This document shows, one piece after another, positions 4,822-63,520 of a stretch of DNA of 64,000 nucleotides (its first letter is position 1; each line of letters opens with the position of its first letter). The position numbers were made by a program, and so were the translations under genes. The stretch spans positions 2,243,216 to 2,307,215 of the forward strand of contig OZ244559.1 in NCBI GenBank assembly GCA_965217675.1. The letters run 5' to 3'. This stretch comes from Dehalococcoidia bacterium. GTDB taxonomy: Bacteria; Chloroflexota; Dehalococcoidia; Lucifugimonadales; UBA1127. A model generated the notes under the pieces. That model had not been told where the DNA came from and searched no databases. It was given only the letters and a program-made list of their open reading frames with translations.

Positions 4822-5256
4822 ATGACGCAGTACATACCTTCACCCACGGACTGGGTGCGCGAGCAAGTGGAGCTCTATGAAGGCAGCGGCGGCAAGGAAG
4901 GCACGACGCTGCGGGAAACGGGCATGCCGGTCATCATCGTCACGAACGTCGGGAACAAGACCGGCGGCATCCGCAAGACCCCGCTCATGCGCGTCAAGGA
5001 TGGCGACAACTACGTCCTCGTAGGCTCGCGGGGCGGCGCGCCGAAACACCCGGTGTGGGTCTACAACCTGCGCGCCAACGGCGACGTCGAAATCCGGGAC
5101 ATGGCCGAGGTCCAAAGCATGCGCGTCCGTGAAGTCGATGACGACGCGGAACGGTCGCAGCTATGGGCGCTCGCCGTGGAGGCCTACCCGCCCTATGCGG
5201 AGTACCAGACCAGGACGTCGCGGCTGATACCGGTGTTCCTCGCGGAGCCTGCGTAG
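4822..5256 (+). CDS. Deazaflavin (F420)-dependent nitroreductase family protein (DDN/DUF385-like)
   Basis: ORF 4822..5256. The pattern IIVTNVGNKTGGIRKTPLMRVKDGDNYVLVGSRGGAPKHPVWVYNLRANGDVEI is typical of the DDN/PNPOx-like family. A GAAGGAGA RBS is present. Confidence 0.8.
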   Translation: MTQYIPSPTDWVREQVELYEGSGGKEGTTLRETGMPVIIVTNVGNKTGGIRKTPLMRVKDGDNYVLVGSRGGAPKHPVWVYNLRANGDVEIRDMAEVQSMRVREVDDDAERSQLWALAVEAYPPYAEYQTRTSRLIPVFLAEPA

Positions 5257-5415: not shown

Positions 5416-6411
5416 ATGGCAACCCAGCGTTCCCGTCAACCCATCGAGCGCAACTTGGCCATGGAATTGGCCCGCGTGACGGAGGCCGCCGCTATGGCCG
5501 CCGTCCGCCACATGGGCATGGGCGACAAGGAGCTGGTGGACCAAGCCGCCGTGGACGCGATGCGCTACACCCTGGGCTATGTGCCGATGGACGGCGTGGT
5601 GGTCATCGGCGAGGGCGAGAAGGACGAGGCCCCCATGCTCTTCAACGGCGAGCACATCGGCAACGGGCTGCCGCCGGAGGTGGACATCGCGGTTGACCCC
5701 ATCGACGGCACGACGCTGCTGTCCAAGGGCCTGCCGGGGGCCATCGCCGTGGTAGCCCTATCGGCTCGCGGCACGATGAACGTGCCGGGCAACGTCTTCT
5801 ACATGAACAAGATCGCCGTGGGGCCCGACGCCCGCGACGCCATCGACGTCGAGGCAGGTGTGACCGACAACCTGCGCAACGTGGCGGAGGCCAAGGGGTG
5901 CAACGTCACGGACCTGACGGTGGTGATGCTGGACCGCCCTCGCCACGCGGAGATCCTGGCGGAGGTCCGTGCGGCAGGCGCGCACGTCAAGATGATCTCG
6001 GACGGCGACATTGTCGCGGGCATCCAGGCGGCGCTGCCGGGCACCGGCGTCGACATGCTGCTGGGCATCGGCGGGTCGCCGGAGGCGGTGCTGACGGCCG
6101 CGGCTATCCGGTGCATCGGCGGCAGAATCCTCTGCAAGGCGTGGCCCCGGGACGAGGCCGAGCGGGAACAGGCCATTGCCGACGGCGTGGACCTGGAGAA
6201 GGTGTACGACACCTACGACCTGGTGGGCGGCGAGGATGTCTTCTTCTCGGCGACGGGGGCCAGCACCGGCGACCTGCTCAAGGGCGTGAGGTTCGGCGAC
6301 GGCGGCGCGCAAACGCAATCGCTGGTGATGCGCTCGCGCTCCGGCACCGTCCGGTGGATAGACTCCATCCACGACTTCTCGCGGCTGGACAAGATCCGGT
6401 TTGAGGACTAG
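5416..6411 (+). CDS. glpX: Class II fructose-1,6-bisphosphatase (GlpX type)
   Basis: ORF 5362..6411. LAMELARVTEAAAMAAVRHMGMGDKELVDQAAVDAMR...DIAVDPIDGTT matches GlpX. I place the start at ATG 5416 (MATQRS), downstream of the candidate promoter. Confidence 0.9.
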   Translation: MATQRSRQPIERNLAMELARVTEAAAMAAVRHMGMGDKELVDQAAVDAMRYTLGYVPMDGVVVIGEGEKDEAPMLFNGEHIGNGLPPEVDIAVDPIDGTTLLSKGLPGAIAVVALSARGTMNVPGNVFYMNKIAVGPDARDAIDVEAGVTDNLRNVAEAKGCNVTDLTVVMLDRPRHAEILAEVRAAGAHVKMISDGDIVAGIQAALPGTGVDMLLGIGGSPEAVLTAAAIRCIGGRILCKAWPRDEAEREQAIADGVDLEKVYDTYDLVGGEDVFFSATGASTGDLLKGVRFGDGGAQTQSLVMRSRSGTVRWIDSIHDFSRLDKIRFED

Positions 6412-6420
6412 GGGAGCGCT

Positions 6421-6446
6421 CGTCATTCCGGAGAAAGCCGGAATCC
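6421..6446. repeat. Dispersed repeat family D hairpin (CGTCATTCCGGAGAAAGCCGGAATCC)
   Basis: The inverted repeat ATTCCGG...CCGGAAT has the same architecture as GGATTCCTGCCTTCGCAGGAATGACG at 48859 and 49136, and as related copies at 31147, 31272 and 56500. Confidence 0.7.
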
Positions 6447-6478
6447 AAGGAGTCAGTGCAACCTGAAATAGCTAGAAA

Positions 6479-6514
6479 GAGAAGCGGGCCGCGCATTGCG
6501 GCCCGCTTCTTTTT
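6479..6514 (+). terminator. Rho-independent terminator between convergent glpX and fba
   Basis: A 13-bp perfect stem (AGAAGCGGGCCGC / GCGGCCCGCTTCT) closes the loop GCATT and is followed by TTTTT. Confidence 0.65.
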
Positions 6515-6537
6515 GTGCCTCAGTAAGCCCTTCCCCC

Positions 6538-7575
6538 TTACACGGCGGCGGGTTGGCCCTCCATGGCGGGGCTGTACTTGCCCTGCTGGGCGGCGCTGGT
6601 GAGCTGGGCGCGGTGGTGGAAGGCCGCCTGCGCGGCACCGACGTTCGCCGCCTGGCCGGCCCACGCCTTCAGCGGCGCGCTCTGCAGCCCGCGGCCGAAG
6701 GAGTAGCTGATGGTCCACGGCGCACTGACCTTAGCGGCGTAGACGTTGATGGCGTTCAGGTTCACTGTCGCCTCGTCGTCGCTCTGGCCGCCGGAGAGGA
6801 AGACAATGCCCGGCATCATCGCGGGAATGGTGCGCTTGAAGCAGTCGACGGTCATCTCCCCGACGACCTCTGCGGGTGCGCGGTTCTCGGCGGAGGCGCC
6901 GGAGAGCACCATGTTTGGCTTGAGCAGCATGCACTCCAACTCGACGCCCTGGCGTTCGAGCTGCGCGAAGGTCTCGAGCAGCGTCGCCCTGGTGGCGGCG
7001 TAGCAGGCGTCGATGTCGTGGGTGCCGTCCATGAGGACCTCAGGCTCGACGATGGGCACTAGACCGGCGTCCTGGCTCAGGGCGGCGTAGCGGGCCAGCG
7101 CATGGGCATTGACCTCGATGCAGCGGGCCGTCGGGATGCCCGGGCCGACATTGATGACGGCGCGCCACTTGGCGAAGCGGGCGCCCAACTCGCGGTACTC
7201 GGCGAGTCGAGGGGCCAGGCCGTCGAGGCCCTCGGTCACGAGCTCGTTGGGCGAGCCGACCACGGGCTGTGTGCCCTTGTCGACCTTGATGCCGGGGATG
7301 ATGCCGCGGCTGGAGAGCACCTGCACCAGCGGGGTGCCGTCGGCGCCGTTCTGCCGGATGGTCTCGTCGTAGAGGATGACACCGCTGACATAGGCGTCGA
7401 CGCCGATCGTGCGGAAGAGCATCTCGCGGTAGTCGCGGCGGTTCTCCTCGGTGCTCTCGGCGTTGATGGAGTCGAATCGACGCTTGATTGTGCCGGAGCT
7501 TTCGTCGGCGGCGAGGATGCCCTTGCCGGGGGCGACGAGGGCCTTGGCGGTGGCGGCAAGCTTGGCGATGTCCAT
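6538..7575 (-). CDS. fba: Class I fructose-bisphosphate aldolase (eukaryotic-type glycolytic aldolase family)
   Basis: ORF 6538..7575 (345 aa). GKGILAADESSGTIKRRF and the LKPNMV region with the active-site Lys are present. An AGGAGG RBS is present. Confidence 0.9.
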   Translation of the reverse strand: MDIAKLAATAKALVAPGKGILAADESSGTIKRRFDSINAESTEENRRDYREMLFRTIGVDAYVSGVILYDETIRQNGADGTPLVQVLSSRGIIPGIKVDKGTQPVVGSPNELVTEGLDGLAPRLAEYRELGARFAKWRAVINVGPGIPTARCIEVNAHALARYAALSQDAGLVPIVEPEVLMDGTHDIDACYAATRATLLETFAQLERQGVELECMLLKPNMVLSGASAENRAPAEVVGEMTVDCFKRTIPAMMPGIVFLSGGQSDDEATVNLNAINVYAAKVSAPWTISYSFGRGLQSAPLKAWAGQAANVGAAQAAFHHRAQLTSAAQQGKYSPAMEGQPAAV

Positions 7576-7754
7576 GTTCAGCCTCCTTTGCGACGCTTAC
7601 GCGCGAATAGACAACGGGATGGAAGTCGCCCCTATCATACCCCAAAATCTCCTGGGTGCGTTGGCGCAGCGACGAGATATTTCAGTGGTGGGTGCGCCCG
7701 CGCGAGGTGTAAGGCGTGATACGCTGACTGCAGCCCATCGAGAACGGAGGCCCC

Positions 7755-11978: not shown

Positions 11979-12051
11979 CCGTTCGCCCTGAGCCCGTCGA
12001 GGGGTCGCTTGAACGCCACGGGAGTCCGTTCGCCCTGAGCCTGTCGAAGGG
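11979..12051 (-). repeat. Two copies of dispersed repeat family A (reverse orientation) between the aldolase and dehydrogenase genes
   Basis: CCGTTCGCCCTGAGCCCGTCGAGGGG lies at 11979-12004 and CCGTTCGCCCTGAGCCTGTCGAAGGG at 12026-12051. Both are preceded by GGGAGT, and the period is 47 bp. Confidence 0.85.
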
Positions 12052-31337: not shown

Positions 31338-32663
31338 TTGGCACTCTTAACGCCGAACATAGTCAAGCGGAACACCAACAAGGTGTTCTTCGGCTGGTGG
31401 ATTGTCGCCGGGGCCATCGGCATTCAGTTCCTGCATGGCGGACTGCTATTCCAGGCCTTTGGCGCCTACTTCGTGCGGCTGCAAGAGGAATTCGGCTGGA
31501 GCCGCGCCACCCTCTCCTGGTCGTTCTCCCTGCTGCGCGTCGAGAGCGGGCTGCTGGGGCCGCTGCAGGGCTGGCTCATCGATCGCTTTGGGCCGCGGTC
31601 GGTGCTGATTATCGGGCTGATCATCTTTGCGATCGGGTTCATGTTGCTTAGCCGGATAGACTCGCTATTGACCTTCTACCTCGCCTTTGTCGTCATCGCG
31701 ATTGGCAGCGGGCTCGGTGGGTTCCTCACCCTCTTCGTTAGCGTCTCCGCCTGGTTCCGGCGCCGGCGGGCAACGGCGCTGGCGCTCTCGCAGATTGGGG
31801 GAAGCATCGGCGGGATTTTCGTTCCTCTTGTTGCGCTGGCCCTGATCAACTTCGGGTGGCGGGATACTGCATTCGCCTCCGGCATCATCATCTTGGTGGT
31901 GGGCTTGCCGCTGACGCCGCTGATGCGAGCGAGGCCGGAAAAATACGGGATGCTGCCGGACGGCGGCCAGCGTTTCGAGCGAAGAACGGTGGAGACGCGG
32001 GCGCCGATTGATCCCGAGCGGGAGTTCACGGCGCGGGAGGCGATGCGGACGCCGGCCTTCTGGTTCATCTCGATGGGGCACGGGAGCGCGTTGTTTGTGG
32101 TGGGCGCCCTGATGGTGCACCTGATCCCGCACCTGGTACAGAAGCTGGGCGTCTCGCTTGAATCGGCGGCGGCTGTGGTGACGGTGATCACGACGGCGCA
32201 GATTGTCGGACTGGTGAGCGGCGGGGTCCTGGGCGATCGGATGGACAAGCGGCTCATCGCGGCGGCGTGCATGGTGGGCCATACGGTGGCGCTGATTGGC
32301 ATAGCCTATGCGGGGTCCCTGTGGCTGGTATACGCCTTCGCCGTAATTCACGGGCTGGCGTGGGGCGCCCGCGGTCCGCTGATGGGGGCGATACGCGCCG
32401 ATTACTTCGGGGTAAAGGCGATTGGGACGATCATGGGGTTTTCGTCGCTCATCGTGACCGTCGGCAACGTGTTTGGGCCGGTATTCGCGGGATGGATGGC
32501 GGACGTGCGGGGCGACTACGAGACGGGGTTTGTAATACTGGCGGCGATGACCGGCGTCGGGACGGTGTTCTTCCTCGCGTCCAAGCGGCCGTCGCGGCCC
32601 GAGAGCACGTGGGCACGGGGCCGTCGGCTTGTCATGCAGCGGCGCGCGAGGGAGCGGGACTAG
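31338..32663 (+). CDS. MFS transporter (oxalate/formate antiporter-like subfamily)
   Basis: ORF 31338..32663 (TTG start as given by the track; the start is uncertain). It has about 12 predicted hydrophobic segments and the motif GWLIDRFGPR. Confidence 0.8.
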   Translation: MALLTPNIVKRNTNKVFFGWWIVAGAIGIQFLHGGLLFQAFGAYFVRLQEEFGWSRATLSWSFSLLRVESGLLGPLQGWLIDRFGPRSVLIIGLIIFAIGFMLLSRIDSLLTFYLAFVVIAIGSGLGGFLTLFVSVSAWFRRRRATALALSQIGGSIGGIFVPLVALALINFGWRDTAFASGIIILVVGLPLTPLMRARPEKYGMLPDGGQRFERRTVETRAPIDPEREFTAREAMRTPAFWFISMGHGSALFVVGALMVHLIPHLVQKLGVSLESAAAVVTVITTAQIVGLVSGGVLGDRMDKRLIAAACMVGHTVALIGIAYAGSLWLVYAFAVIHGLAWGARGPLMGAIRADYFGVKAIGTIMGFSSLIVTVGNVFGPVFAGWMADVRGDYETGFVILAAMTGVGTVFFLASKRPSRPESTWARGRRLVMQRRARERD

Positions 32664-32765: not shown

Positions 32766-34151
32766 ATGCCTTCGCGTTCTAGGAGAGTGGGAATTTCGGG
32801 TTTGACTACTCCGGACATACTTAAGAGGAACGCCAACCGCCTGTTCTATGGGTGGTGGATTGTCGCCGCGGCAATCGTCATTCAAGGTCTGCAGGGCGGC
32901 CTGTTGCTGCAGTCGTTTGGCGCCTACTTTCTGCGGCTGCAGGAAGAATTTGGGTGGAGCAGCGCAGCCCTTGCGTGGTCCTTCTCCATCCTGCAGCTGC
33001 AGAACGGTCTACTTGGCCCGGTGCAAGGCCTGCTTGTCGACCGGTTCGGTCCAAGGGTCGTGCTGACAGTTGGGGTAATCGTCCTTGCACTGGGATTTCT
33101 TATGCTCAGCCAAATCCAATCACTCTTGACGTTCTACCTGGCCTTTGTGGTCCTGTCGGTGGGATTTGGCCTGAGTGGGTACCTGACGCTCATCGTCGCC
33201 GTAGCAAACTGGTTTCAGCGCCGTCGTTCACTGGCGCTAGCGCTTTCCACGACGGGCTTGGGAATTGGCGGCATGCTGGTGCCCCTCGTGGCCATTTCCC
33301 TGAACTCCTTTGGATGGCGCAACACGGCCATCGCTTCATGCGCCATCATCCTCGCCGTGGGGCTGCCGTTGATGCCGATCATTCGCGGCAGACCCGAACG
33401 CTACGGCTTGCGACCGGATGGCGGTCCAGACCCGAGGGCAACCACCAACACCTCGCGGGCGGTGCAGACCGGACGGGACTTCACCGTAGGTGAGGCGATT
33501 CGCACGCCGGCGTTCTGGCTAATCTCCCTTGGTCACGGCAGCGCGTTGCTGGTGGTCGGCGCAATCATGGTTCACCTCATCCCCCACTTGGTGCACCGCC
33601 TGGACATGTCGCTGGAATCCGCGGCCCTCGTTGTCACGGTGATGACCATGACCTCCATGGTGGGACAGATCGGCGGAGGGCTCCTGGGCGACAGAATCGA
33701 CAAGCGGCTCATATGCGCGGCGGGAATGGTGGCGCATTGCGTGGCGCTCCTGGGAATCACGTTCGCCACGTCACTGGGCCTGGTCTACTTCTTTGCAATT
33801 CTCCATGGGTTGGCGTGGGGCGGCCGGGGACCACTCATGGGCGCGATTCGGGCCGACTACTTCGGGCGGCGGGCGCTGGGGACGATCATGGGGTTGTCTT
33901 CGGTCATTGTCACAATTGGAATCATGTTCGGACCGGTGTTTGCGGGGTGGATGGCGGATCTAAGGGGCGACTATCAGCTGGGTTTCGTTGTGCTGGCCAG
34001 CATGACAGGGCTGGCGTCAGTGTTCTTCCTGGCTGCGAAGAGGCCGCCACCGCCCACGCGCAGGTTGGCGGATATGCGAAGACGAGTCCTAGCGCGGCGG
34101 GAGCGGGAATCCGAACGGTGGGCGGAGGCCCGGAGCCGGGGGCAAGGCTAG
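32766..34151 (+). CDS. MFS transporter, tandem paralog of 31338..32663
   Basis: ORF 32766..34151. It is collinear with the upstream paralog from LTTPDILKRNANRLFYGWWIV onward. The true start may be TTG 32802. Confidence 0.8.
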   Translation: MPSRSRRVGISGLTTPDILKRNANRLFYGWWIVAAAIVIQGLQGGLLLQSFGAYFLRLQEEFGWSSAALAWSFSILQLQNGLLGPVQGLLVDRFGPRVVLTVGVIVLALGFLMLSQIQSLLTFYLAFVVLSVGFGLSGYLTLIVAVANWFQRRRSLALALSTTGLGIGGMLVPLVAISLNSFGWRNTAIASCAIILAVGLPLMPIIRGRPERYGLRPDGGPDPRATTNTSRAVQTGRDFTVGEAIRTPAFWLISLGHGSALLVVGAIMVHLIPHLVHRLDMSLESAALVVTVMTMTSMVGQIGGGLLGDRIDKRLICAAGMVAHCVALLGITFATSLGLVYFFAILHGLAWGGRGPLMGAIRADYFGRRALGTIMGLSSVIVTIGIMFGPVFAGWMADLRGDYQLGFVVLASMTGLASVFFLAAKRPPPPTRRLADMRRRVLARRERESERWAEARSRGQG

Positions 34152-48558: not shown

Positions 48559-48692
48559 GGTCACCTTCCTTGCATGTGGTGTTTGTCCCAGAGGGTAGCG
48601 GGGGCTGCGGCTTCGGCGCGAGGGGTTCGTGTCAGGGTAGAGGGCATACAGGTCGCGCTCTTGCGGCAACAGATGAGGGCGCAGGCGATGCG

Positions 48693-49244
48693 CCCTTCGA
48701 CAGGCTCAGGGCGAACGGGGCGAGGGGGGGGGCTGTGGGGTGAGGTTCCCGCTGCTGCGGGACGGGCGATTCGCGAATCGCCCCTACGGACTGGGTTGGC
48801 GTTCGGGGTTTCGCGACGGCGGTGGTAGTGGGGTTGCCCCTCTTTGCCCCGCCCCTCTGGATTCCTGCCTTCGCAGGAATGACGAGAGGGGGCGCAGGAA
48901 TGACGATGGGGGGGCAGGAATGACGAGAGCGGGGCGCGGGAATGACGACGCGGGGGGGCAGGGAGGCCCTTCGACAGGCTCAGGGCGAACGGGCGGGGGG
49001 GGGGGGGGGCTGAGGGGTGAGGTTCCCGCTGCTGCGGGACGGGCGATTCGTGAATCGCCCCTACGGACTGGGTTGGCGTTCGGGGTTTCGCGACGGCGGT
49101 GGTAGTGGGGTTGCCCCTCTTTGCCCCGCCCCTCTGGATTCCTGCCTTCGCAGGAATGACGAGAGTGGGGCAGGGATGGCGATAGCGGGGCACGAATGAC
49201 GATGCGGTGGTGGCGAGGATGATGATGAGGTGGTCGCGGGGCGG
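48693..49244 (+). repeat. Two tandem copies (about 274 and 278 bp) of a composite unit built from repeat families A, B, C and D
   Basis: Unit 1 spans 48693-48966 and unit 2 spans 48967-49244. Each starts with CCCTTCGACAGGCTCAGGGCGAACGG, followed by a G-run. Next come GAGGTTCCCGCTGCTGCGGGAC and GGGCGATTCG(C/T)GAATCGCCCCTACGG. Each ends with ...CCCCTCTGGATTCCTGCCTTCGCAGGAATGACGA. Unit 1 ends with 3 extra GC(A/G)GGAATGACGA half-repeats. Confidence 0.9.
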
Positions 49245-49428
49245 CCCTTCGACAGGCTCAGGGCGAACGGGGCGCGGGGGCGCGGGTATGGCGGGGGCGG
49301 CCCTTCGACAGGCTCAGGGCGAACGGGGGCGGGGGCGCGGGTATGGCGCGGCGCGGCCCTTCGACAGGCTCAGGGCGAACGGCAGGCGGGGGCGCGGGGA
49401 GGCCCTTCGACAGGCTCAGGGCGAACGG
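49245..49428 (+). repeat. Array of four family A repeats at 56/56/46-bp spacing
   Basis: Core 26-mers lie at 49245, 49301, 49357 and 49403. The intervening G-rich segments are themselves near-identical (GGCGCGGGGGCGCGGGTATGGCG...). Confidence 0.9.
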
Positions 49429-49466
49429 GGCGGCGGGGGCGCACCATGACGGATGCGTATGTGGGA

Positions 49467-49522: not shown

Positions 49523-50929
49523 ATGCCTGGAAAGACCATGTTTGAGAAGATCTGGGACTCGCACGTAGTGGCGGAGGAGCCGGGGAAGCCCGCGTTGCTC
49601 TACGTCGACCTGCACCTGGTGCACGAGGTGACGTCGCCGCAGGCCTTCGACGGGCTGCGGATGGCGGGTCGGCGGGTGCGCCGGCCGGACCTGACGGTCG
49701 CCACCGCAGACCACGACGTCCCGACGACGGACCGCTCGCAGCCCATCGAGGACCCCATCGCGGTGCAGCAGTTGGAGCACCTGTCCAACGACGCCCGGGA
49801 ATTCAACATCCCGCTGGCGGACATCCACAGCCCGCTGCAGGGCATCGTCCACATCATCGGGCCGGAGCAGGGGTACACGCAGCCGGGCAAGGTCATCGTC
49901 TGCGGCGACAGCCACACGGCGACGCATGGCGCGTTCGGCGCGTTCGCGCTGGGCGTGGGCACGTCGGAGGTGGAGCACGTGCTGGCCACGCAGACGCTGC
50001 GGCAGGCCAAGCAAAAGACGATGCAGGTGGACGTGAACGGCCCGCTGCCATACGGCGTGACGGCCAAGGACCTCATTCTCGCCATCATCGGGCAGATCGG
50101 CATTGACGGCGGCACGGGCCACGTCATCGAGTACACCGGTCAGGGCATCCGCGACCTCTCGATGGCCGGGCGCATGACGGTCTGCAACATGTCCATCGAG
50201 GGCGGCGCGAGGGCCGGGATGGTCGCGCCGGACGAGACGACGTTCGACTACCTTCGCGGCAGGGCGAACGCGCCCCAGGGCGACGCCTTCGACGAGGCGG
50301 TCGAGCGGTGGAAGCAGCTTCCGACGGACCCCGACGCCGTCTACGACGCGACGGTCGTCATCGAGGCGGCGGAGCTGTCGCCGATGGTGTCGTGGGGCAC
50401 CAACCCCGGGCAGGTGACGATGGTCACGAGCCGAGTGCCGGACCCAGCCAGCTTCGCCCACCCCGCGGACCGCGAGAGCGCGGAGCGGGCGCTGCGGTAC
50501 ATGGGGCTGGAGCCTAACACGCCCATCGAGGACATCCCGATTGACCGCGTATTCATCGGCTCCTGCACCAACTCGCGCATCGAGGACCTGCGGGACGCCG
50601 CGGCGGTGGTGAAGGGGCTCACGGTGAGCTCACGCGTCGGCGCGATGGTGGTGCCGGGCTCGTACGCGATCAAGCAGCAGGCGGAGGCCGAGGGCCTGGA
50701 CCGCATCTTCCTGGACGCGGGCTTCGAGTGGCGCAACGCGGGTTGCTCCATGTGCCTCGCGATGAACCCGGACCAGCTCCTACCCCAGGAGCGGTGCGCA
50801 TCGACGTCCAACCGCAACTTCGAGGGTCGGCAGGGCAAGGACGGACGCACACACCTGGTGAGCCCGCAGATGGCGGCCGCAGCGGCGATTGCGGGGCACT
50901 TTGTGGACATACGAGAGTGGAACAACTAG
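49523..50929 (+). CDS. leuC: 3-isopropylmalate dehydratase large subunit
   Basis: ORF 49523..50929. [18 protein letters not shown] and the cluster-ligand motifs [11 protein letters not shown] and NAGCSMCL are present. Confidence 0.95.
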
Positions 50930-52585: not shown

Positions 52586-52879
52586 ATGGTTGCAAAACCC
52601 CTGCCGGACGGGCTGGTTCCCAGCGGAAGCTCACCGGCATTCACCGCTGCCACCATGCCAGACGCGCTCCGGCGGGAGCACGCGTTGGGCACTGGACATT
52701 GGGGATTGCTGCACGTGCTCGAGGGTAGCGTCACATTTGTTGACATGGGCGCAGGCAGCGAGCAACTGGTCTCGGCGCCTGGGACCGTTCCCATCCACCC
52801 TCAGTCGCCGCACCGGCTGATTGTCAGCGGTCCCGTGAGGGTTCGAATCGACTTCTTTGTCGAACAGAACCCCGCCTGA
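52586..52879 (+). CDS. DUF1971 (YeaR / TehB N-terminal-like) cupin-type protein
   Basis: ORF 52586..52879. MPDALRREHALGTGHWGLLHVLEGSVTF and the C-terminal RIDFFV match the DUF1971 pattern. Confidence 0.65.
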   Translation: MVAKPLPDGLVPSGSSPAFTAATMPDALRREHALGTGHWGLLHVLEGSVTFVDMGAGSEQLVSAPGTVPIHPQSPHRLIVSGPVRVRIDFFVEQNPA

Positions 52880-52903
52880 GAACGGCCGCCGTTCCGCCCT
52901 CGA

Positions 52904-53161
52904 CTAGAACAAGCTGCCCGTCGTCGCGAAGGCCGAGCCTGCCGGCAGCGTGGCGACCTCGAGCGAAATGCGGGCGCCACGCTCGCGGCCGCGACTGTAG
53001 AGCTGGCCCACCATGCGAGCGGCCTCCTCCGCGTCGACGCAGAGCGACTTGCCGCTAGCCACGCCGGTGCCCTCGTCGAGGACGCTGACGCGCAGCTGGT
53101 CCTCAAAGCCCTCGAGCCGCTGGAGCTTGATCTGGATGCGCTCTTCCGTCATGGTTGCCAT
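52904..53161 (-). CDS. Small hypothetical protein (85 aa)
   Basis: This is part of ORF 52904..53227. I place the start at ATG 53161, which has a GGAGG RBS 9 nt upstream (MATMTEERIQIKLQRLEGFEDQL...). The longer start at 53227 would lie upstream of the predicted promoter. Confidence 0.45.
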   Translation of the reverse strand: MATMTEERIQIKLQRLEGFEDQLRVSVLDEGTGVASGKSLCVDAEEAARMVGQLYSRGRERGARISLEVATLPAGSAFATTGSLF

Positions 53162-53193
53162 TTCGCTTGCCTCCGTTCGGAATGTCTGGAGGT

Positions 53194-53234
53194 ATTTTAG
53201 AACATAGTTTCTTAGTTTGTCAAACATGTGTTCT
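53194..53234 (-). promoter_or_regulatory. Near-consensus promoter overlapped by two LexA (GAAC-N4-GTTC)-like dyads
   Basis: The minus strand reads TTGACA (53223-53218), an 18-nt spacer, then TAAAAT (53199-53194). The dyads are AGAACATAGTTTCT (53199-53212) and CAAACATGTGTTCT (53221-53234). Each has one half-site mismatch, and their centres are 22 bp apart. Confidence 0.4.
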
Positions 53235-53240
53235 GAAACG

Positions 53241-53501
53241 AAGGGGCGGCGGGGCTTGGGAAGGGCCTCGATAGCAGGAGGCGAGGTTCCCGCCTGCGCG
53301 GGAACGACGGGGTAGGCGTACGCGGGGGTGCGCGGGGGCTGGTGGTGAAGGGAGACCCTTCGACAGGCTCAGGGCCAACGGATTCGCGAAACGGGCCTGT
53401 AACGGATTGGGTTAGGTCGTCTTGCGTCGCGATACGGTCTGCAGGGACGGCACGAGGGACTTGAAGTACTCGTAGGCGTGGGAGGCGCGGCGCTCCCAGT
53501 C
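53241..53501. repeat. Left copy of a direct repeat of about 230-260 bp flanking the S51 peptidase gene
   Basis: It aligns with 54364-54585 through AAGGGGCG..., GAGGTTCCCGCCTGCGCGGGAAC, family A (53356-53381) and GGATTGGGTTAGGTCGTCTTGCG...CGCTCCCAGTC. This left copy carries an extra insert of about 40 bp. Confidence 0.85.
53412..53501 (-). pseudogene. Duplicated 3' fragment (29 codons + stop) of the class II aldolase gene
   Basis: The reverse translation is DWERRASHAYEYFKSLVPSLQTVSRRKTT*. The aldolase C-terminus is DWERRASHAYEYFRSLVPSLQTVARRKTT*. It has no start codon and lies 3 nt from the S51 stop codon. Confidence 0.75.
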
Positions 53502-53504
53502 TCG

Positions 53505-54206
53505 CTATTTGATCTGTTGCGCATTCAGAGGAGTTTCCACTACCTGTCCCCCTGTCAGCTCGACACGGTAGGCTGCCGCTCCAACCCTCCCGCTGACCAC
53601 TTCAGACACCTCGGTCCCCGTGAAGTGTATCGCGGCATCATCGTCAATGGCATATCCGGGTGGGAACCCTTCAGAAATGAGGCTGTGGTAGAGGGGCCGG
53701 CGCTGCTCTTCGCCATCGTAGTGGGGGCAGTGGGAGCCTGGAAGGAATCCCAAACCGTCGTACAGAGACTTGAGTTCGTTCACGTCGAAGGAGTCAGTGG
53801 TGCCGCATTCAAACCAGCAAAGGGACCCTGCGCTTCCACCGCACAGCACAATGCCGGCGTCCCAGGCCTCCTTCAACGCCAGGTCGACGCCGTGGGCCCG
53901 CCATACGGCCAGTAGGTTGGCTGTGTTGCCGCCCAATACGAGGATGACGTCCTGGCTGAGGAGATAGTCTCGGATGTCTCGCACCGTGCGGCTGAACAGC
54001 TCCAAGTGGGAGGGCTCGCAGCGAGAGGCCGGAAAGTTGCTGTAAAACCGGAGGAGATTGGCTGGGGAGTCACCGGTGGCGGTGGGAATGCAGCATACCC
54101 TGGGCCGGTCCTTGCCCGCTAGAGACAGGACATAGTTGTGTAGCGGGTGCATCCCGACCGCGACCGGTCTGGTTCCTCCGAATGCGACAATGTGCTTTCC
54201 TTCCAT
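53505..54206 (-). CDS. Peptidase S51 family (dipeptidase E / cyanophycinase-like) protein
   Basis: This is part of ORF 53505..54269, with the start at ATG 54206 (MEGKHIVAFGG...). VILVLGGNTANLL and CGGSAGSLCWFE (nucleophile Ser region) are present. Confidence 0.8.
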   Translation of the reverse strand: MEGKHIVAFGGTRPVAVGMHPLHNYVLSLAGKDRPRVCCIPTATGDSPANLLRFYSNFPASRCEPSHLELFSRTVRDIRDYLLSQDVILVLGGNTANLLAVWRAHGVDLALKEAWDAGIVLCGGSAGSLCWFECGTTDSFDVNELKSLYDGLGFLPGSHCPHYDGEEQRRPLYHSLISEGFPPGYAIDDDAAIHFTGTEVSEVVSGRVGAAAYRVELTGGQVVETPLNAQQIK

Positions 54207-54363
54207 GCTCTCCCCACTTCGCAAGCCAAGCAGCCAATCGGTGTGCAGCCAACGGAGAATACCATACAACTTGAACCTACGGGCTGAGGGCAGCGCCGGA
54301 CTGCAGGTCCAGCACGAACCTCAACGCGAGGTCTCCTGGTTTGGCAGGCATTCGTTTTGAATC

Positions 54364-54585
54364 AAGGGGCGTGGTGGGTCTTGCAAAGGGCCTCGATGGC
54401 GGAGGGCGAGGTTCCCTCCTGCGCGGGAACGACGGGTAGGGCGCCCAATCCGTTTGTATGCGCCCCTTCGACAGGCTCAGGGCGAACGGATTGGGTTAGG
54501 TCGTCTTGCGGCGGGCGACGGTCTGAAGGGACGGAACGAGGGAGCGGAAGTACTCGTAGGCGTGGGAGGCGCGGCGCTCCCAGTC
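54364..54585. repeat. Right copy of the direct repeat flanking the S51 peptidase gene (includes the authentic aldolase 3' end)
   Basis: See 53241-53501. This copy contains family B (54408-54430) and family A (54464-54489). Confidence 0.85.
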
Positions 54586-55257
54586 GGGGCCGAACTCGGC
54601 GACGTACTCGTCGGTGAGCGGGACGGGCGTGCCGACAATGCTGGCGACGACCTGCATGATGGCCGCGCGCTCGAGGTAGATCGTGTTGCTGACGGAGTGG
54701 TCGACGGTCTGGCCGACGACCACGACGCCGTGGCCTCGCAGGAGGGCGGCGGTGCGGTCGCCAAGGCAGTCGGCGACGGCCTTCCCGTCCTCCCACGAGG
54801 TGATGAGGCGCGGGTGCGGGAAGATGGGCGTCTCCGGCGCGAAGGGGAGCGCCTGGTTGTAGAGGGGTTTGATGGGCACGTTGCCCGCGCCGATGGACGT
54901 GGCGATGAGCTGGTGGGTGTGGACGACGGAGCCGACGTCGGGGCGGGCGAGCATGATGGCGACGTGCAGCATTGTTTCACGGGGCGGCACCGGCGCGTCG
55001 ATGACTCGGCCGCTCTGCTTGCTGGGGTCCCACTGGCTGCCGGTCCCCGCGGCGTAGGCATCGAGGTCGACCTCTACGAGGTCACGGGCGGTGACTTGGT
55101 TGTGGGCCTTCAGGACGGGCTTGATGATCATCCTGTTGGCGCCGGGAATACGGGCGCTGACGTGACCGTGGAAGTCGACGAGACCCTGGTGGTCGAGGAT
55201 GTGCGAGCTCTCGGCGACCTGCTGCTTGAGGCGTCGGATCTCGGCTTGGGAGGGCAT
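54496..55257 (-). CDS. Class II aldolase/adducin family protein
   Basis: ORF 54496..55257. DFHGHVSARIPG, the metal-ligand region VVHTHQLIATS, and LLRGHGVVVVGQT are present. Confidence 0.85.
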   Translation of the reverse strand: MPSQAEIRRLKQQVAESSHILDHQGLVDFHGHVSARIPGANRMIIKPVLKAHNQVTARDLVEVDLDAYAAGTGSQWDPSKQSGRVIDAPVPPRETMLHVAIMLARPDVGSVVHTHQLIATSIGAGNVPIKPLYNQALPFAPETPIFPHPRLITSWEDGKAVADCLGDRTAALLRGHGVVVVGQTVDHSVSNTIYLERAAIMQVVASIVGTPVPLTDEYVAEFGPDWERRASHAYEYFRSLVPSLQTVARRKTT

Positions 55258-55324
55258 GGCGGTCCTTTCTGCGTTGGTGTGTCGGGGTGTAGGTTACCGC
55301 ATTTTTGCGGAGGTTGTGGAACGT

Positions 55325-55786
55325 TCAGCGATTGCCGCCGCGCGCTTCCTTGCCGACTCTGTAGAGGTAGTGGCCGAGGAGGAGCACGAAGGTGGCGAGG
55401 ACGACGTGGAAGAGGGCGGGCAGGCTTCGTGCGAACCACTCTACGTCGGTCAGGAACGTGAGCCCGGCGACGAGTCGAATCGCCATGACGGCGAAGTAGG
55501 CGCCGCCGAGGATGAAGCAGGCGTTGTGCTTCCACGATGCGGGTCGCACGGCGTCCGCTCGCACGAGGAAGAGCACCCGGGCAAGCAGTGCGATGATTGC
55601 CACCTGCGTCGCGAGGAGCAGGGGGTAGGGCAGGGCGGAACCTTGCCAAGCGTCGAAAGAGGGCAGGAACGGGACAGGGCCCACCCACTGCACCACCTGC
55701 GCCAGCACTCGCAGGACGAACAGCACTGTGAGCGCGGCCATCCAGGGCAGGTAGCGGCTATGGATGGGGGTCGTGTCTTTGTTCAT
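55325..55786 (-). CDS. Hypothetical integral membrane protein (about 4 TM)
   Basis: ORF 55325..55786. It has four long hydrophobic segments. I recognise no family. Confidence 0.5.
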   Translation of the reverse strand: MNKDTTPIHSRYLPWMAALTVLFVLRVLAQVVQWVGPVPFLPSFDAWQGSALPYPLLLATQVAIIALLARVLFLVRADAVRPASWKHNACFILGGAYFAVMAIRLVAGLTFLTDVEWFARSLPALFHVVLATFVLLLGHYLYRVGKEARGGNR

Positions 55787-55890
55787 CAGTGCGAGACCAG
55801 GTCAGCGTACCAGACGAAAGCGCCACGATTGAGAGCAGGTTACACTATTGGGCGCACTGGCAAGTCGCCGTTCTAACAGGGAAGTGTGAT

Positions 55891-56462
55891 GTGAAACGTG
55901 AGCCTCCGTTGTGGTTAATCGTGACGGGCCCGCCCGCCGCCGGAAAGACTACCCTGGCCAGAAGACTTGCAATGGACCTAGATATACCTCTGTATGAAAA
56001 GGATGTCTTCAAGGACACCCTCTTTCAAACTCTGGGCTCTGGCGATAAAGCTTGGTCTCAGCAAGTTGGCATGGCCGCGATTCGCTTGTTGTTTCTCGTT
56101 GCCGACCGGATGTTACGCACAGGGGCATCGCTAACCACCGAATGCAACTTCGCCACACGGCTGTCCTCCGAGCAAGTTGGCGAGATTGCGGAAGGCGCTC
56201 GAGCAAGCGTCATTCAAGTCCATTGCTCGGCCCCCCAGATATCTTGGTGGAGCGAAACGCGGCGCGGTTGGCGCCGCCCAACTTGCGCCCCGGTCACCAC
56301 GTCATGACCAGCGAGGAATTGCTAGAGGGTGTCCGCTCTGGAGTCTGGGAGCCGCTTGAGGTTTCTTCAAAGATCGTTCGCGTGGATACCTCTGGCTCTT
56401 TCAACTATGCGAGCGTCCTACGGGACATTGTCCAAGATGCGCCGCATCCAAGCCGCGACTGA
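55891..56462 (+). pseudogene. P-loop kinase-like (AAA_33 / zeta-toxin-like) ATP-binding protein, frameshifted in a C6 run
   Basis: GTG 55891 gives VKREPPLWLIVTGPPAAGKTTLARRLA... in the frame of ORF 55789..56307. The homologous C-terminus (PDILVERNAARL...VRVDTSGSF...) continues in the frame of ORF 56052..56462. The switch occurs at CCCCCC 56231-56236, and one extra C would restore a single ORF. Confidence 0.65.
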
Positions 56463-63395: not shown

Positions 63396-63520
63396 CCCTT
63401 CGACAGGCTCAGGGCGAACGGACTTGGGAAGCGCGCGTGCGGTGGGGAGTGGCGCGCGAGGGCGGGGGTGATGCGGCGGCTGCTGGTGGAAGGCCCTTCG
63501 ACAGGCTCAGGGCGAACGGA
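63396..63520 (+). repeat. Two family A repeats (63396-63421, 63495-63520) in the vWA / OCD intergenic region
   Basis: Both copies match CCCTTCGACAGGCTCAGGGCGAACGG exactly. A degenerate family D element follows at about 63533-63565. Confidence 0.85.

Follow-up and report, generated by a model that had tools for sequence, protein, structure and literature searches.

An S51 peptidase gene between two copies of an aldolase gene end: a probable insertion with target duplication in Dehalococcoidia

The window analysed here, a stretch of 64,000 nt of DNA, carries on one strand an intact class II aldolase gene, an S51 peptidase gene, an orphan copy of the end of the aldolase gene, and a gene coding for a conserved protein of unknown family, hereafter geneX (Table 1). 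The source lineage is an uncultured, SAR202-like member of the Dehalococcoidia from a marine or sponge environment. Orthologues of the aldolase in L001-L006 and L045 are 91-97% identical to it, and homologues of the S51 peptidase are mostly 233 aa long. In profile searches the S51 peptidase scored under the cut-offs for PepE and cyanophycinase, and exact look-ups of the aldolase and S51 proteins of the window matched no record. Only sub-threshold chance matches were returned by an Rfam scan of positions 52800-55400, and no terminator-like site was found in 53100-54700. The promoter of geneX is conserved in 10 genomes, and the boundary of the duplication described below, at 53207, falls inside its spacer.

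Table 1. Features of the aldolase-S51-geneX locus, in window positions
Feature	Position	Strand	Description
Class II aldolase/adducin-family gene	54496-55257	-	ORF of 253 aa, intact; PF00596, 1.1e-32
R_right (target copy, 255 bp)	54331-54585	-	Contiguous with the 5' part of the aldolase gene
R_right, aldolase 3' end	54496-54585		
R_right, 26-mer	54464-54489		
R_right, hairpin	54410-54433		
R_right, promoter remnant	54331-54372		Degenerate copy of the geneX promoter's upstream half; TTTGACAAAC to GCCTGCCAAAC
5' part of insert	54204-54330	-	The S51 gene's own upstream region
S51 peptidase gene	53505-54203	-	232 aa; ATG at 54203, TAG at 53505-53507; PF03575, 1.2e-43
Whole insert (829 bp)	53502-54330	-	Absent from sister genomes
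Orphan fragment	53412-53501	-	Copy of aldolase codons 225-253 and stop
R_left (target copy, 295 bp)	53207-53501	-	Contiguous with geneX; carries the orphan end of the aldolase and, in functional form, the geneX promoter's upstream half
R_left, 26-mer	53356-53381		
R_left, hairpin	53285-53308		
R_left, additional module			24-nt GATTCGCGAAACGGGCC, between two AACGGATT octamers
geneX promoter	53194-53223	-	TTGACA, 18-nt spacer, TAAAAT; 11/12 matches
geneX	52904-53161	-	Conserved 85-aa protein of unknown family

The S51 gene is bracketed by two direct repeats, R_left and R_right, which the original prediction had drawn as segments 53241-53501 and 54364-54585 with an identity of about 85-90%. Alignment bears out the estimate, at 87.0% over aligned pairs (187 matches, 28 mismatches and 53 gap columns in a global alignment of these coordinates, or 69.8% over all columns). 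Gapless blocks pair 53401-53501 with 54485-54585 (101 nt, 91%), 53243-53318 with 54368-54443 (76 nt, 82%), and 53356-53384 with 54464-54492 (29 nt, 97%); chance similarity is excluded by the BLASTN E value of 7.6e-36 for the 101-nt block. The repeats are therefore real, but their limits had been set too short, the distal end lying about 35 nt further out, at 53207 in R_left and 54331 in R_right. These extra ~35 nt align with a score of 33, compared with 14.7 +/- 2.7 for shuffled sequences, none of 1000 shuffles reaching 33, and past the extended end the two copies show no similarity, the score there being reached by 309 of 1000 shuffles. R_left and R_right are 85-87% identical over aligned bases. 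Each copy comprises the last 29 aldolase codons with the stop codon, the same intergenic repeat modules, and one half, the upstream one, of the geneX promoter; the duplicated segment reaches about 205 bp of non-coding sequence beyond the aldolase stop codon.

The details predicted for the left copy were upheld. The orphan fragment encodes DWERRASHAYEYFKSLVPSLQTVSRRKTT followed by a stop codon, to be compared with DWERRASHAYEYFRSLVPSLQTVARRKTT and stop for aldolase residues 225-253; it begins 3 nt past the stop codon of the S51 gene, and the junction between shared and unrelated sequence is sharp, directly after CGCTCCCAGTC. Several repeat modules had likewise been listed as common to both segments, and all are present in both, but only the 26-mer family, with 12 copies in the window, is clearly dispersed. 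The hairpin GGTTCCCGCCTGCGCGGGAACGAC occurs at these two R sites only, at up to three mismatches, and GGATTGGGTTAGG was rejected as a dispersed module, being found solely at both R copies and containing the aldolase stop codon.

The order aldolase, S51 gene, orphan fragment and geneX is common to the window and to its closest relatives L001, L045 and L132, whereas in the sister genomes L002 and L006 the aldolase is directly succeeded by geneX within 150-200 bp, and the repeated segment is single-copy. This opposition of filled and empty sites supports the proposal that the locus is the scar of a cassette insertion. The duplication is absent from L002, L003, L004, L006 and L009; L002 and L006 each have one aldolase-geneX interval, to which both R copies can be aligned, and neither copy was found in the donor-type S51 loci examined (L049-L051, L133 and L134). 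A clade formed by the window, L001 and L045 was recovered in 200/200 bootstraps, and among carriers S51 identities of 97.8% and 96.1% stand beside aldolase identities of 97.2% and 94.9%. Since the four carriers fall in one clade and S51 divergence runs parallel to that of the aldolase, the distribution fits a single vertical origin. Two full-length aldolase paralogs, the arrangement expected from decay of a duplicate, were not found at this site in any of 48 loci, and the similarity of the R copies is not limited to the repeat modules, as it also extends over a portion of a promoter and 90 nt of unique coding sequence.

The insert consists of nothing but the S51 gene with some 125 nt of native upstream sequence and the 5 nt that follow the stop codon, and it is homologous end to end with S51 loci in unrelated contexts (85.8% identity with L133 over 54329 to 53500, and 84.9% with L136 over 54342 to 53500). 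Its upstream region, which holds a promoter-like TGGTATTCT, is homologous to those of L133 and L136, and to those of L050 and L051 from about 54300. The 35 nt that separate R_right from the S51 homology were rejected as filler, L133 and L136 showing them to be native S51 upstream sequence; a short-word BLAST search found no source for them. The S51 gene is the single long ORF of the insert that matches a protein family, no transposase or recombinase being found there, nor any inverted repeat pairing the two ends.

Both joints lie in unique sequence, one at aldolase codon 225 and the other within the geneX promoter, in the spacer that separates its -35 box from its -10 box. The 3' joint, at 53501/53502, shows a microhomology of 2 nt (GA), the donor reading TAGCGAGA/gcc, the target ccccGA/CTGG, and the product TAGCGAGA/CTGG. 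The 5' joint falls within a patch of similarity, 13 of 17-18 nt, between the geneX promoter (TTGACAAACTAAGAAAC) and an S51 upstream motif (TTGACAAAATCAAGAAC), and is spanned by a palindromic motif, GAGACCTCGCGTTGAGGTTC at 54316-54335, the right part of which belongs to the insert. Neither joint is inside a repeat module, and the suggested mediation of the event by dispersed intergenic repeats finds no support. The modules are, to judge from their position, passengers in the duplicated target interval and not mediators.

The phylogeny of the S51 gene departs from that of the genomes: the S51 copies of the window clade group with those of the B and D contexts, and not with those of sister genomes. 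This grouping was found in 199/200 replicates of a nucleotide NJ analysis, a type of tree that can be pulled by base composition, and in 120/200 replicates of a protein NJ analysis built from database proteins. The ~125-nt non-coding region upstream of S51 is common only to B/D-type loci, and GC3 is 0.71 in the S51 gene, 0.92 and 0.90 in its two neighbours, and 0.57-0.59 in the B/D-type copies. The L004 and L006 genomes keep an S51 gene elsewhere, at a thiolase locus. Taken together, phylogeny, upstream homology and composition show a probable source of the insert in an S51 locus of the kind now present in lower-GC relatives (contexts B and D). A metagenome scan for S51 returned no close relatives apart from the partial L120.

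Across related genomes the S51 gene occurs in at least four contexts. The thiolase context has empty sites in L138 and L139, and in L135 and L120 it contains an orphan of the last ~20 codons of the upstream gene, which starts 5 nt after the S51 stop codon and, like the aldolase orphan, begins with CTGG; the duplication at this locus is 67 bp. By manual count, the orphan of L135/L120 shows 3 differences from the thiolase end of L134 and 7 from that of L135 itself, and it is followed by an extra segment of 1.9 kb that L134 and L049 lack. The S51 gene of L136 and L137 stands, along with an IS630-like gene, between two copies of a 43-nt direct repeat in which the 5' motif is included. Among 1.28 Mb of related loci, gene-bracketing repeats with unique coding sequence were found at S51 only; the other gene-bracketing repeats consisted entirely of intergenic repeat modules, the case in L002 is a tandem paralogue pair containing Ns, and the flanking repeats of L054, considered as a duplicated gene end, proved to be dispersed modules. 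Of 81 S51 loci tested, four had an orphan, all of them from contexts A and C (L001, L045, L132 and L135). The limits of the moved segment vary by context, the 3' end lying at +5 or +128 nt and the 5' end between -17 and -142 nt. This second, independent S51 insertion with a similar orphan hints that something more regular than a one-off accident may be at work.

We propose that the locus arose through an old single insertion with target duplication, made by illegitimate joints, a reading to which we assign a probability of about 80%, this figure covering the insertion and the target duplication by such joints and not any one enzymatic route. The event would date to an ancestor common to at least four species-level lineages of Dehalococcoidia: 829 bp of DNA would have been joined into the short spacer between aldolase and geneX, with the 3' joint, in aldolase codon 225, placed 295 bp upstream in target coordinates of the 5' joint in the geneX promoter spacer. 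Because of this offset, the 295-bp interval would have come to stand on both sides of the insert, and it is for this reason that the aldolase would have kept its 3' end and geneX its complete promoter. Later, the copies would have diverged to ~85% identity, with indels in the repeat modules, decay of the redundant half-promoter and some exchange between R_left and R_right. The comparisons above show the insertion, its limits and joints, its age and the kind of donor, and the enzymology is inferred from them. As to the route, we tentatively favour, at somewhat under even odds, a one-step replicative template switch of the MMBIR/FoSTeS kind as the most likely one, in which synthesis would leave the target, copy S51, and come back 295 bp behind. 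Template-switch insertions with small copy-number gains at the site and microhomology have been documented (PMC5120786). Integration of a circle, or repair in two steps, would yield the same product.

Integration of a circle would take the form of a Campbell-type event, in which a small circle with S51 already attached to an aldolase-geneX interval of its own entered by one homologous crossover within that interval. The arrangement R-insert-R with intact neighbours is exactly the product of a single crossover, R-S51-R could in turn give rise to such circles and thereby spread to related genomes, and the mixed left-right pattern of FKS and FRS would suit chimeric copies and later conversion alike. 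Such a circle, however, already needs both illegitimate joints, and so would explain the spread of the structure and not its origin; moreover, the carriers form one clade whose S51 and aldolase divergences fit vertical descent from a single event, and neither a circle junction nor a plasmid context was seen. We consider this origin unlikely, and a two-step history somewhat more so. In the latter, S51 with more of its native flank would first have entered the geneX promoter spacer without duplication, splitting the -35 from the -10 box, after which homology-facilitated illegitimate recombination (HFIR) with wild-type DNA of a relative, homologous on the geneX side and illegitimate just past the S51 stop codon, would have restored the promoter and added the orphan and the second interval copy. 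Transformable bacteria provide documented cases of HFIR, a process also invoked to explain orphaned 3' ends of genes (PMC5361080; PMC3240628), and donor-derived orphans would suit the thiolase locus, where the L135/L120 orphan is nearer to the gene end of L134 and is followed by the 1.9-kb extra segment; but the counts at that locus rest on very few sites, and the scheme takes two rare events and an intermediate never observed.

The recurrence of S51 could also be taken to mean that the gene and its 5' palindromic motif form a recurrently mobilised single-gene unit which has no integrase of its own and inserts behind co-oriented genes by an as yet undescribed route, a recombinase or nuclease acting in trans recognising the motif and producing a long, variable target duplication, of tens to hundreds of bases, that includes the 3' end of the upstream gene. 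The multiple contexts of S51, the thiolase context with its empty sites and orphans, the common CTGG start, and the restriction to S51 of gene-bracketing repeats with unique coding sequence in the 1.28 Mb speak for it, and the 43-nt repeats of L136 might be a third footprint beside those at the aldolase and thiolase loci. It is nevertheless improbable given that segment limits differ by context, that the duplications measure 67 and 295 bp, that no recombinase or terminal repeats were found, and that so few of the S51 loci have an orphan. Even more doubtful is entry of S51 by recombination between short dispersed repeats of the 26-mer and hairpin families: although the interval is rich in modules found scattered over the window and related genomes, and hairpin-forming repeats could stall replication and favour a nearby template switch, neither joint is in a module, the S51 donor loci have no modules at the limits of homology, and the duplicated segment takes in 90 nt of unique coding sequence and half a promoter. 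The least probable account holds that a tandem aldolase duplicate once flanked S51 and was deleted down to its last 29 codons. Many distant relatives do have a second class II aldolase next door, but that gene shows only ~32% identity, is encoded on the opposite strand, and is missing from close relatives; in addition, the duplication covers the ~205 bp of non-coding sequence past the stop codon, including half of the geneX promoter, and the DNA between the copies is wholly S51-locus sequence up to 5 nt past the stop.

Comparison with known systems places the proposed insertion in familiar territory. Like the products of FoSTeS/MMBIR, the locus holds a segment copied from elsewhere, joints with 2 nt and 13/17 nt of homology, and a doubled target interval (PMC5120786), and it has neither a recombinase gene nor terminal repeats. 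It differs in that accounts of FoSTeS/MMBIR come mostly from human and yeast rearrangements and from bacterial amplifications, while here the process would have to be read from an old product, ~10-15% diverged; nor are iterative switches or extra templated pieces visible at the locus, the latter because the apparent filler is S51 upstream sequence. A Campbell-type insertion-duplication similarly leaves a homologous segment directly repeated around the insert and the neighbours intact, yet it needs a circle with the target segment, whereas this locus has no vector, plasmid or integrative-element genes, and its insert is one gene. HFIR is known in Acinetobacter, Streptococcus pneumoniae and Pseudomonas stutzeri, and resembles the present case in that foreign DNA is joined at microhomology beside a homologous anchor and an orphan 3' end lies downstream of the newcomer (PMC5361080; PMC3240628). 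In Rhs/T6SS effector loci, for whose orphaned 3' gene ends HFIR is invoked, by contrast, a module displaces the variable 3' end and the immunity gene; at the S51 locus the 3' end was duplicated almost unchanged, nothing was displaced, and the genes are metabolic.

Transposons and insertion sequences also flank inserted DNA with a direct target duplication, but one of 2-14 bp, compared with 255-295 bp here and 67 bp in the thiolase context; nor does the S51 locus show a transposase, terminal inverted repeats, or a short duplication of fixed length. Site-specific integrative elements, among them tRNA-gene islands and prophages in icd, enter the 3' end of a gene and carry its replacement. They share with the S51 locus a functional target and an insert flanked by direct repeats of the target gene's 3' end; in contrast, this locus lacks an integrase and a short identical core, the repeat runs 205 bp past the gene, and the cargo is a single gene. 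Indeed, no recombinase is encoded in the insert, no integrase is found among the genes from 51.6 to 56.3 kb, and the R copies, at 85-87% identity, differ by indels as well and have no apparent distinct core. An integron cassette, with an attC site at its 3' end and an array beside an integron integrase, finds no counterpart either, as S51-locus homology stops 5 nt past the stop codon and the neighbours are the aldolase and geneX, and the breakpoints expected in a dispersed repeat for a REP- or MITE-like rearrangement lie elsewhere. The locus thus belongs to a descriptive class defined by a monophyletic filled site with its empty site, repeats that are copies of the target, and joints with short homology or none, and it exemplifies clearly, if with an ordinary mechanism, the gain of a gene by illegitimate recombination.

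With the empty site, the filled site, a donor-type locus and both joints all available, it constitutes an unusually complete natural record of the gain of a single gene in a streamlined uncultured lineage without mobile-element machinery. It illustrates that abundant intergenic repeats need not drive gene gain even where they are present at the site, that an insertion can, thanks to a long target duplication, hit a gene end and a promoter while damaging neither, and that direct repeats of 255-295 bp can persist over species-level divergence. The practical value is modest, namely a clade marker, a caution for annotation where orphan gene ends occur, and, in the second S51 case, a lead for a wider search.

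The orphan fragment is in frame with the S51 gene (TAG, one codon, 29 codons, stop) and is still an open frame in all genomes examined, its 4-16 differences in 90 nt being too few to give power to a selection test. Differences between the left and right copies are mixed across genomes, as in the codons for FKS and FRS. The geneX promoter is flanked or overlapped by two GAAC-N4-GTTC-like boxes.

Three co-oriented minus-strand genes occupy 52.9-55.3 kb of the window: a class II aldolase-family gene, a gene for an S51 peptidase that scores under the NCBIfam cut-offs for PepE and cyanophycinase, and a conserved gene, geneX. Our analyses show that an 829-bp single-gene segment carrying the S51 gene was inserted between the other two through illegitimate joints, with duplication of the target.

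Genes at the S51 locus and the flanking copies of the duplicated target
Feature	Window coordinates	Strand	Length	Support
Class II aldolase-family gene	54496-55257	minus		PF00596, 1.1e-32
S51 peptidase gene	53505-54203	minus		PF03575, 1.2e-43
geneX (conserved)	52904-53161	minus	85 aa	no family match
R_left (direct-repeat copy)	53207-53501		295 bp	alignment of copies and of relatives' copies
R_right (direct-repeat copy)	54331-54585		255 bp	alignment of copies and of relatives' copies

The two segments originally predicted to bracket the S51 gene do align as direct repeats, with 87.0% identity over aligned pairs and 53 gap columns in a global alignment, and with three gapless blocks of 101 nt (91%; BLASTN E = 7.6e-36), 76 nt (82%) and 29 nt (97%). 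The left copy was likewise correctly described as holding the last 29 codons and stop of the aldolase gene, 3 nt from the S51 stop codon; its frame is intact and codes for aldolase residues 225-253, two of which differ from the real C-terminus. The repeats had been drawn too short, since significant similarity extends a further 35-40 nt or so (CCCCTT...GAxAC; score reached by 0 of 1000 shuffles) and none is found beyond (309 of 1000 shuffles), which gives the lengths of R_left and R_right in the table, with 84.7% identity over aligned pairs. This added stretch consists of the geneX promoter's upstream half (TTGACA, 18-nt spacer and TAAAAT at 53223-53194, 11 of 12 matches in a promoter scan). 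The edge of the duplication falls inside the promoter spacer. R_left keeps the working promoter, which together with two GAAC-N4-GTTC-like boxes is nearly invariant in 10 genomes, and the redundant half in R_right has drifted from TTTGACAAAC to GCCTGCCAAAC.

Scanning genomes with the aldolase as query yielded 48 loci, each of them in an uncultured Dehalococcoidia, SAR202 or Chloroflexota genome. The order aldolase, S51, 29-codon aldolase fragment and geneX recurs in L001 (97% amino acid identity), in L045 (95%) and in L132, a locus found through the S51 protein, and all three carry the flanking duplication. The arrangement looked for in relatives, an aldolase followed by geneX with no peptidase, occurs in L002 and L006 (91-92%), where geneX begins 150-200 bp past the aldolase and the interval is present once. 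All 200 bootstrap replicates of a neighbour-joining tree of aldolase nucleotides 1-672 united the window copy, L001 and L045 as a clade, whose sister group comprised L002, L006 and L003, and a single gain on the stem of this clade is the simplest reading. We consider the structure old and vertically inherited since its formation, because the carriers differ from the window by 6-12% of nucleotides across its whole length and their S51 identity follows their aldolase identity.

Close homologues of the S51 gene are many and lie in differing contexts: between a CoA-transferase-thiolase pair and a convergent EcKL kinase gene (context A; L049, L134, L135); after DUF1177, AroM, luciferase and Cys/Met enzyme genes and before a molybdopterin oxidoreductase gene (context B; L050, L051, L133); or in a BrxC/BrxD-methylase defence island beside an IS630-like gene (context D; L136, L137). 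Judged by contig identity, L049 shares a chromosome with L004, and L135 with L006, so that sister genomes lacking S51 in the aldolase-geneX slot possess one at the thiolase locus. Homology to L133 runs from 54329 to 53500 (85.8%) and to L136 from 54342 to 53500 (84.9%), covering the insert in full, together with the ~125 nt that precede the ATG, whereas context A copies match it only from -17 to the stop (81-84%). The S51 genes of the window clade grouped with context B and D copies in 199 of 200 replicates of a nucleotide neighbour-joining tree and in 120 of 200 of a protein tree, in which 74 replicates placed them with context A instead. Sister-genome copies from context A formed a group of their own (171/200). 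GC3 is 0.71 for the S51 gene, 0.92 for the aldolase and 0.90 for geneX, compared with 0.57-0.59 for B and D copies and 0.78-0.86 for A copies. Taken together, homology extent, trees and GC3 point to a relative of lower GC as the source: the insert would be a copy from one of its B/D-type loci, since then partly ameliorated, and not a vertical orthologue of the S51 genes of the sister genomes. In almost all of the genomes sampled, the DNA around S51 is rearranged: L051 differs from L133 and L050 by an inserted 1.7-kb segment (5420-7160) with a 381-aa ORF of no known family about 82 nt downstream of S51, and upstream of S51 there is an extra SGL-family gene in L050 and an IS-like DUF4096 gene in L133.

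Both joints can be placed by comparison with these loci. At the 3' joint the native S51 locus of L133 reads ...CAAATAG CGAGA GCCTAGC, the aldolase GGCCCCGA CTGGGAG and the window CAAATAG CGAGA CTGGGAG; the window follows the S51 locus up to CGAGA and the aldolase from CTGGGAG, so the switch lies 5 nt past the S51 stop, with GA shared. At the 5' joint (slash), the geneX promoter, TTGACAAACTAAGAAAC/TATG, and the motif upstream of S51, TTGACAAAATCAAGAAC/CTTCG in L136 and TGGACAAAATCGAAAAC/CTTCG in L133, agree, when aligned on the joint without gaps, in 13 of 17-18 positions, a similarity whose chance we estimate at roughly 1e-3; the left arm of a palindromic sequence (GAACCT-N8-AGGTTC) is where the joint sits. 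Because the 3' joint is 295 bp upstream of the 5' joint in target coordinates, the interval is present twice and both neighbours are whole. Empty and filled sites, donor-type loci and joints support the original prediction of the scar of an inserted gene cassette; ORF, family and repeat searches of the insert revealed no transposase, integrase, terminal inverted repeat or attC-like end.

Entry mediated by dispersed intergenic repeats, as originally proposed, is contradicted by the position of the joints, neither of which touches the 26-mer CCCTTCGACAGGCTCAGGGCGAACGG or the hairpin. Among the repeat modules listed, the 26-mer, present 12 times in the window, is the only one that is clearly dispersed; the hairpin and GGATTGGGTTAGG, which includes the aldolase stop codon, were found in the window at R_left and R_right only. 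The joints equally contradict a decayed aldolase paralogue, and the neighbouring second aldolases that might have supported it are about 32% identical, on the opposite strand and confined to distant relatives.

Three routes of insertion give the same product, and the choice among them is inferred. We favour a replicative template switch (probability about 0.4), which would give the product in a single step and is compatible with joints of short homology: synthesis would leave the target in the promoter spacer, copy S51 and return 295 bp behind. Insertion by template switching, accompanied by a small copy-number gain where the segment lands, has been described (PMC5120786). Single-crossover integration of a circle already carrying the interval seems unlikely, as it would explain the spread of the structure better than its origin. 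Somewhat less likely still is a two-step route, with blunt insertion at the promoter and then repair with wild-type DNA of the kind seen in homology-facilitated illegitimate recombination (PMC5361080, PMC3240628), the intermediate it requires not having been seen. By whichever route it arose, the structure adds a well-documented case to a kind of event already known: the gain of a gene through illegitimate recombination in which the target is duplicated.

The thiolase locus offers a parallel. In L135, a 67-nt copy of the last ~20 codons and stop of the thiolase gene lies 5 nt past the S51 stop (4875-4941 and 5708-5774, 82% identical), and the partial contig L120 has the same orphan after S51 (~441-508). 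L138 and L139 have empty sites, the thiolase gene abutting the convergent EcKL gene (near 6161), and L134 and L049 carry S51 there without an orphan. We regard this site as a second, independent S51 insertion. Gene-bracketing direct repeats with unique coding sequence were found only for S51, in context A and in the aldolase-geneX setting, among 1.28 Mb of related loci and 81 S51 loci. A 43-nt direct repeat (86% identical; 4848-4890 and 7541-7583) encloses S51 together with an IS630-like gene pair (HTH_23 and DDE_3) in the defence island of L136 and L137; it holds the promoter-like TTGACAAAATCAAGAAC and the palindrome, which mark the 5' limit of S51 homology. Elsewhere among the fetched loci this motif occurred upstream of S51 in L133, besides one weak match with 8 mismatches in L043. 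Since the moved segment has different limits from one context to another, we do not think that S51 is a discrete mobile element. Both orphans, of the aldolase and of the thiolase, open with CTGG no more than 5 nt past the S51 stop, and on the basis of this recurrence there is a small chance that S51 is the sign of a more regular process of insertion.

After insertion, the two copies came to differ by indels in the repeat modules, including a 24-nt module between two AACGGATT octamers present in R_left only. In the 90-nt coding part, differences are mixed between copies and genomes and the FKS/FRS codon variants follow neither, which suggests occasional exchange between the copies. The orphan frame is open in all carriers examined and, in the window (53412-53507), L001 and L045, in frame with S51 (TAG, one codon, 29 codons, stop), so that translation past the TAG would lengthen the peptidase by 30 residues. 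This arrangement is probably due to chance, since the thiolase orphan of L135 is out of frame; with 4-16 differences only, the orphan gives no power for a selection test.

Upstream of geneX (53190-53240 on the minus strand of the window; L001-L011), both promoter boxes belong to the LexA (Cheo) type of Gram-positive bacteria: AGAACACATGTTT overlies the -35 element, and AGAAACTATGTTCT precedes the -10. geneX may be a small DNA-damage-induced gene. The evidence for the boxes is their conservation, not their number, the window having one occurrence of the motif where chance alone predicts 0.45. A gene for an MrfA-like repair helicase divergently adjoins this promoter in L004 and L005. The aldolase-geneX spacer is a variable slot among relatives, occupied by this DEAD-box helicase gene (855 aa, reverse strand) in L004 (10740-13380) and L005 (10740-12900), by a Pro/Thr-rich 221-aa ORF in L003 (10760-12000) and by a hydrophobic ORF of 177-194 aa in L009 (10740-11660), L010 and L011; none of these slots shows a flanking duplication, and the S51 case alone has one. 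In the distant relatives L013-L046 (66-76% aldolase identity), the next gene is usually the oppositely oriented second class II aldolase, ~100-2000 bp downstream and unrelated to the orphan fragment. Beside the locus, a plus-strand gene for an AAA_33/zeta-toxin-like P-loop kinase (55789-56307; GC 0.57 and GC3 0.61, below its neighbours) varies in position among relatives: in L045 it lies between the membrane-protein gene and the aldolase, in L006 it is only 48% identical, and in L001 none was detected. This gene, too, may have been moved or acquired recently.

Dense intergenic repeats form an array at 48680-49430, upstream of a gene starting near 49524, and occur also at 11985-12051 and 63396-63513. 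In the array, the 26-mer occurs six times, alongside several hairpin units of the GGAATGACG type and a 175-nt unit present twice (48718-48892 and 48995-49169; spacing 277 nt, 97% identity), and the exact 20-mer core of the repeats is confined to the close clade among the fetched loci. A further 300-nt direct repeat (32014-32313 and 33469-33768; spacing 1455 nt, 71% identity) probably corresponds to two tandem paralogous genes.
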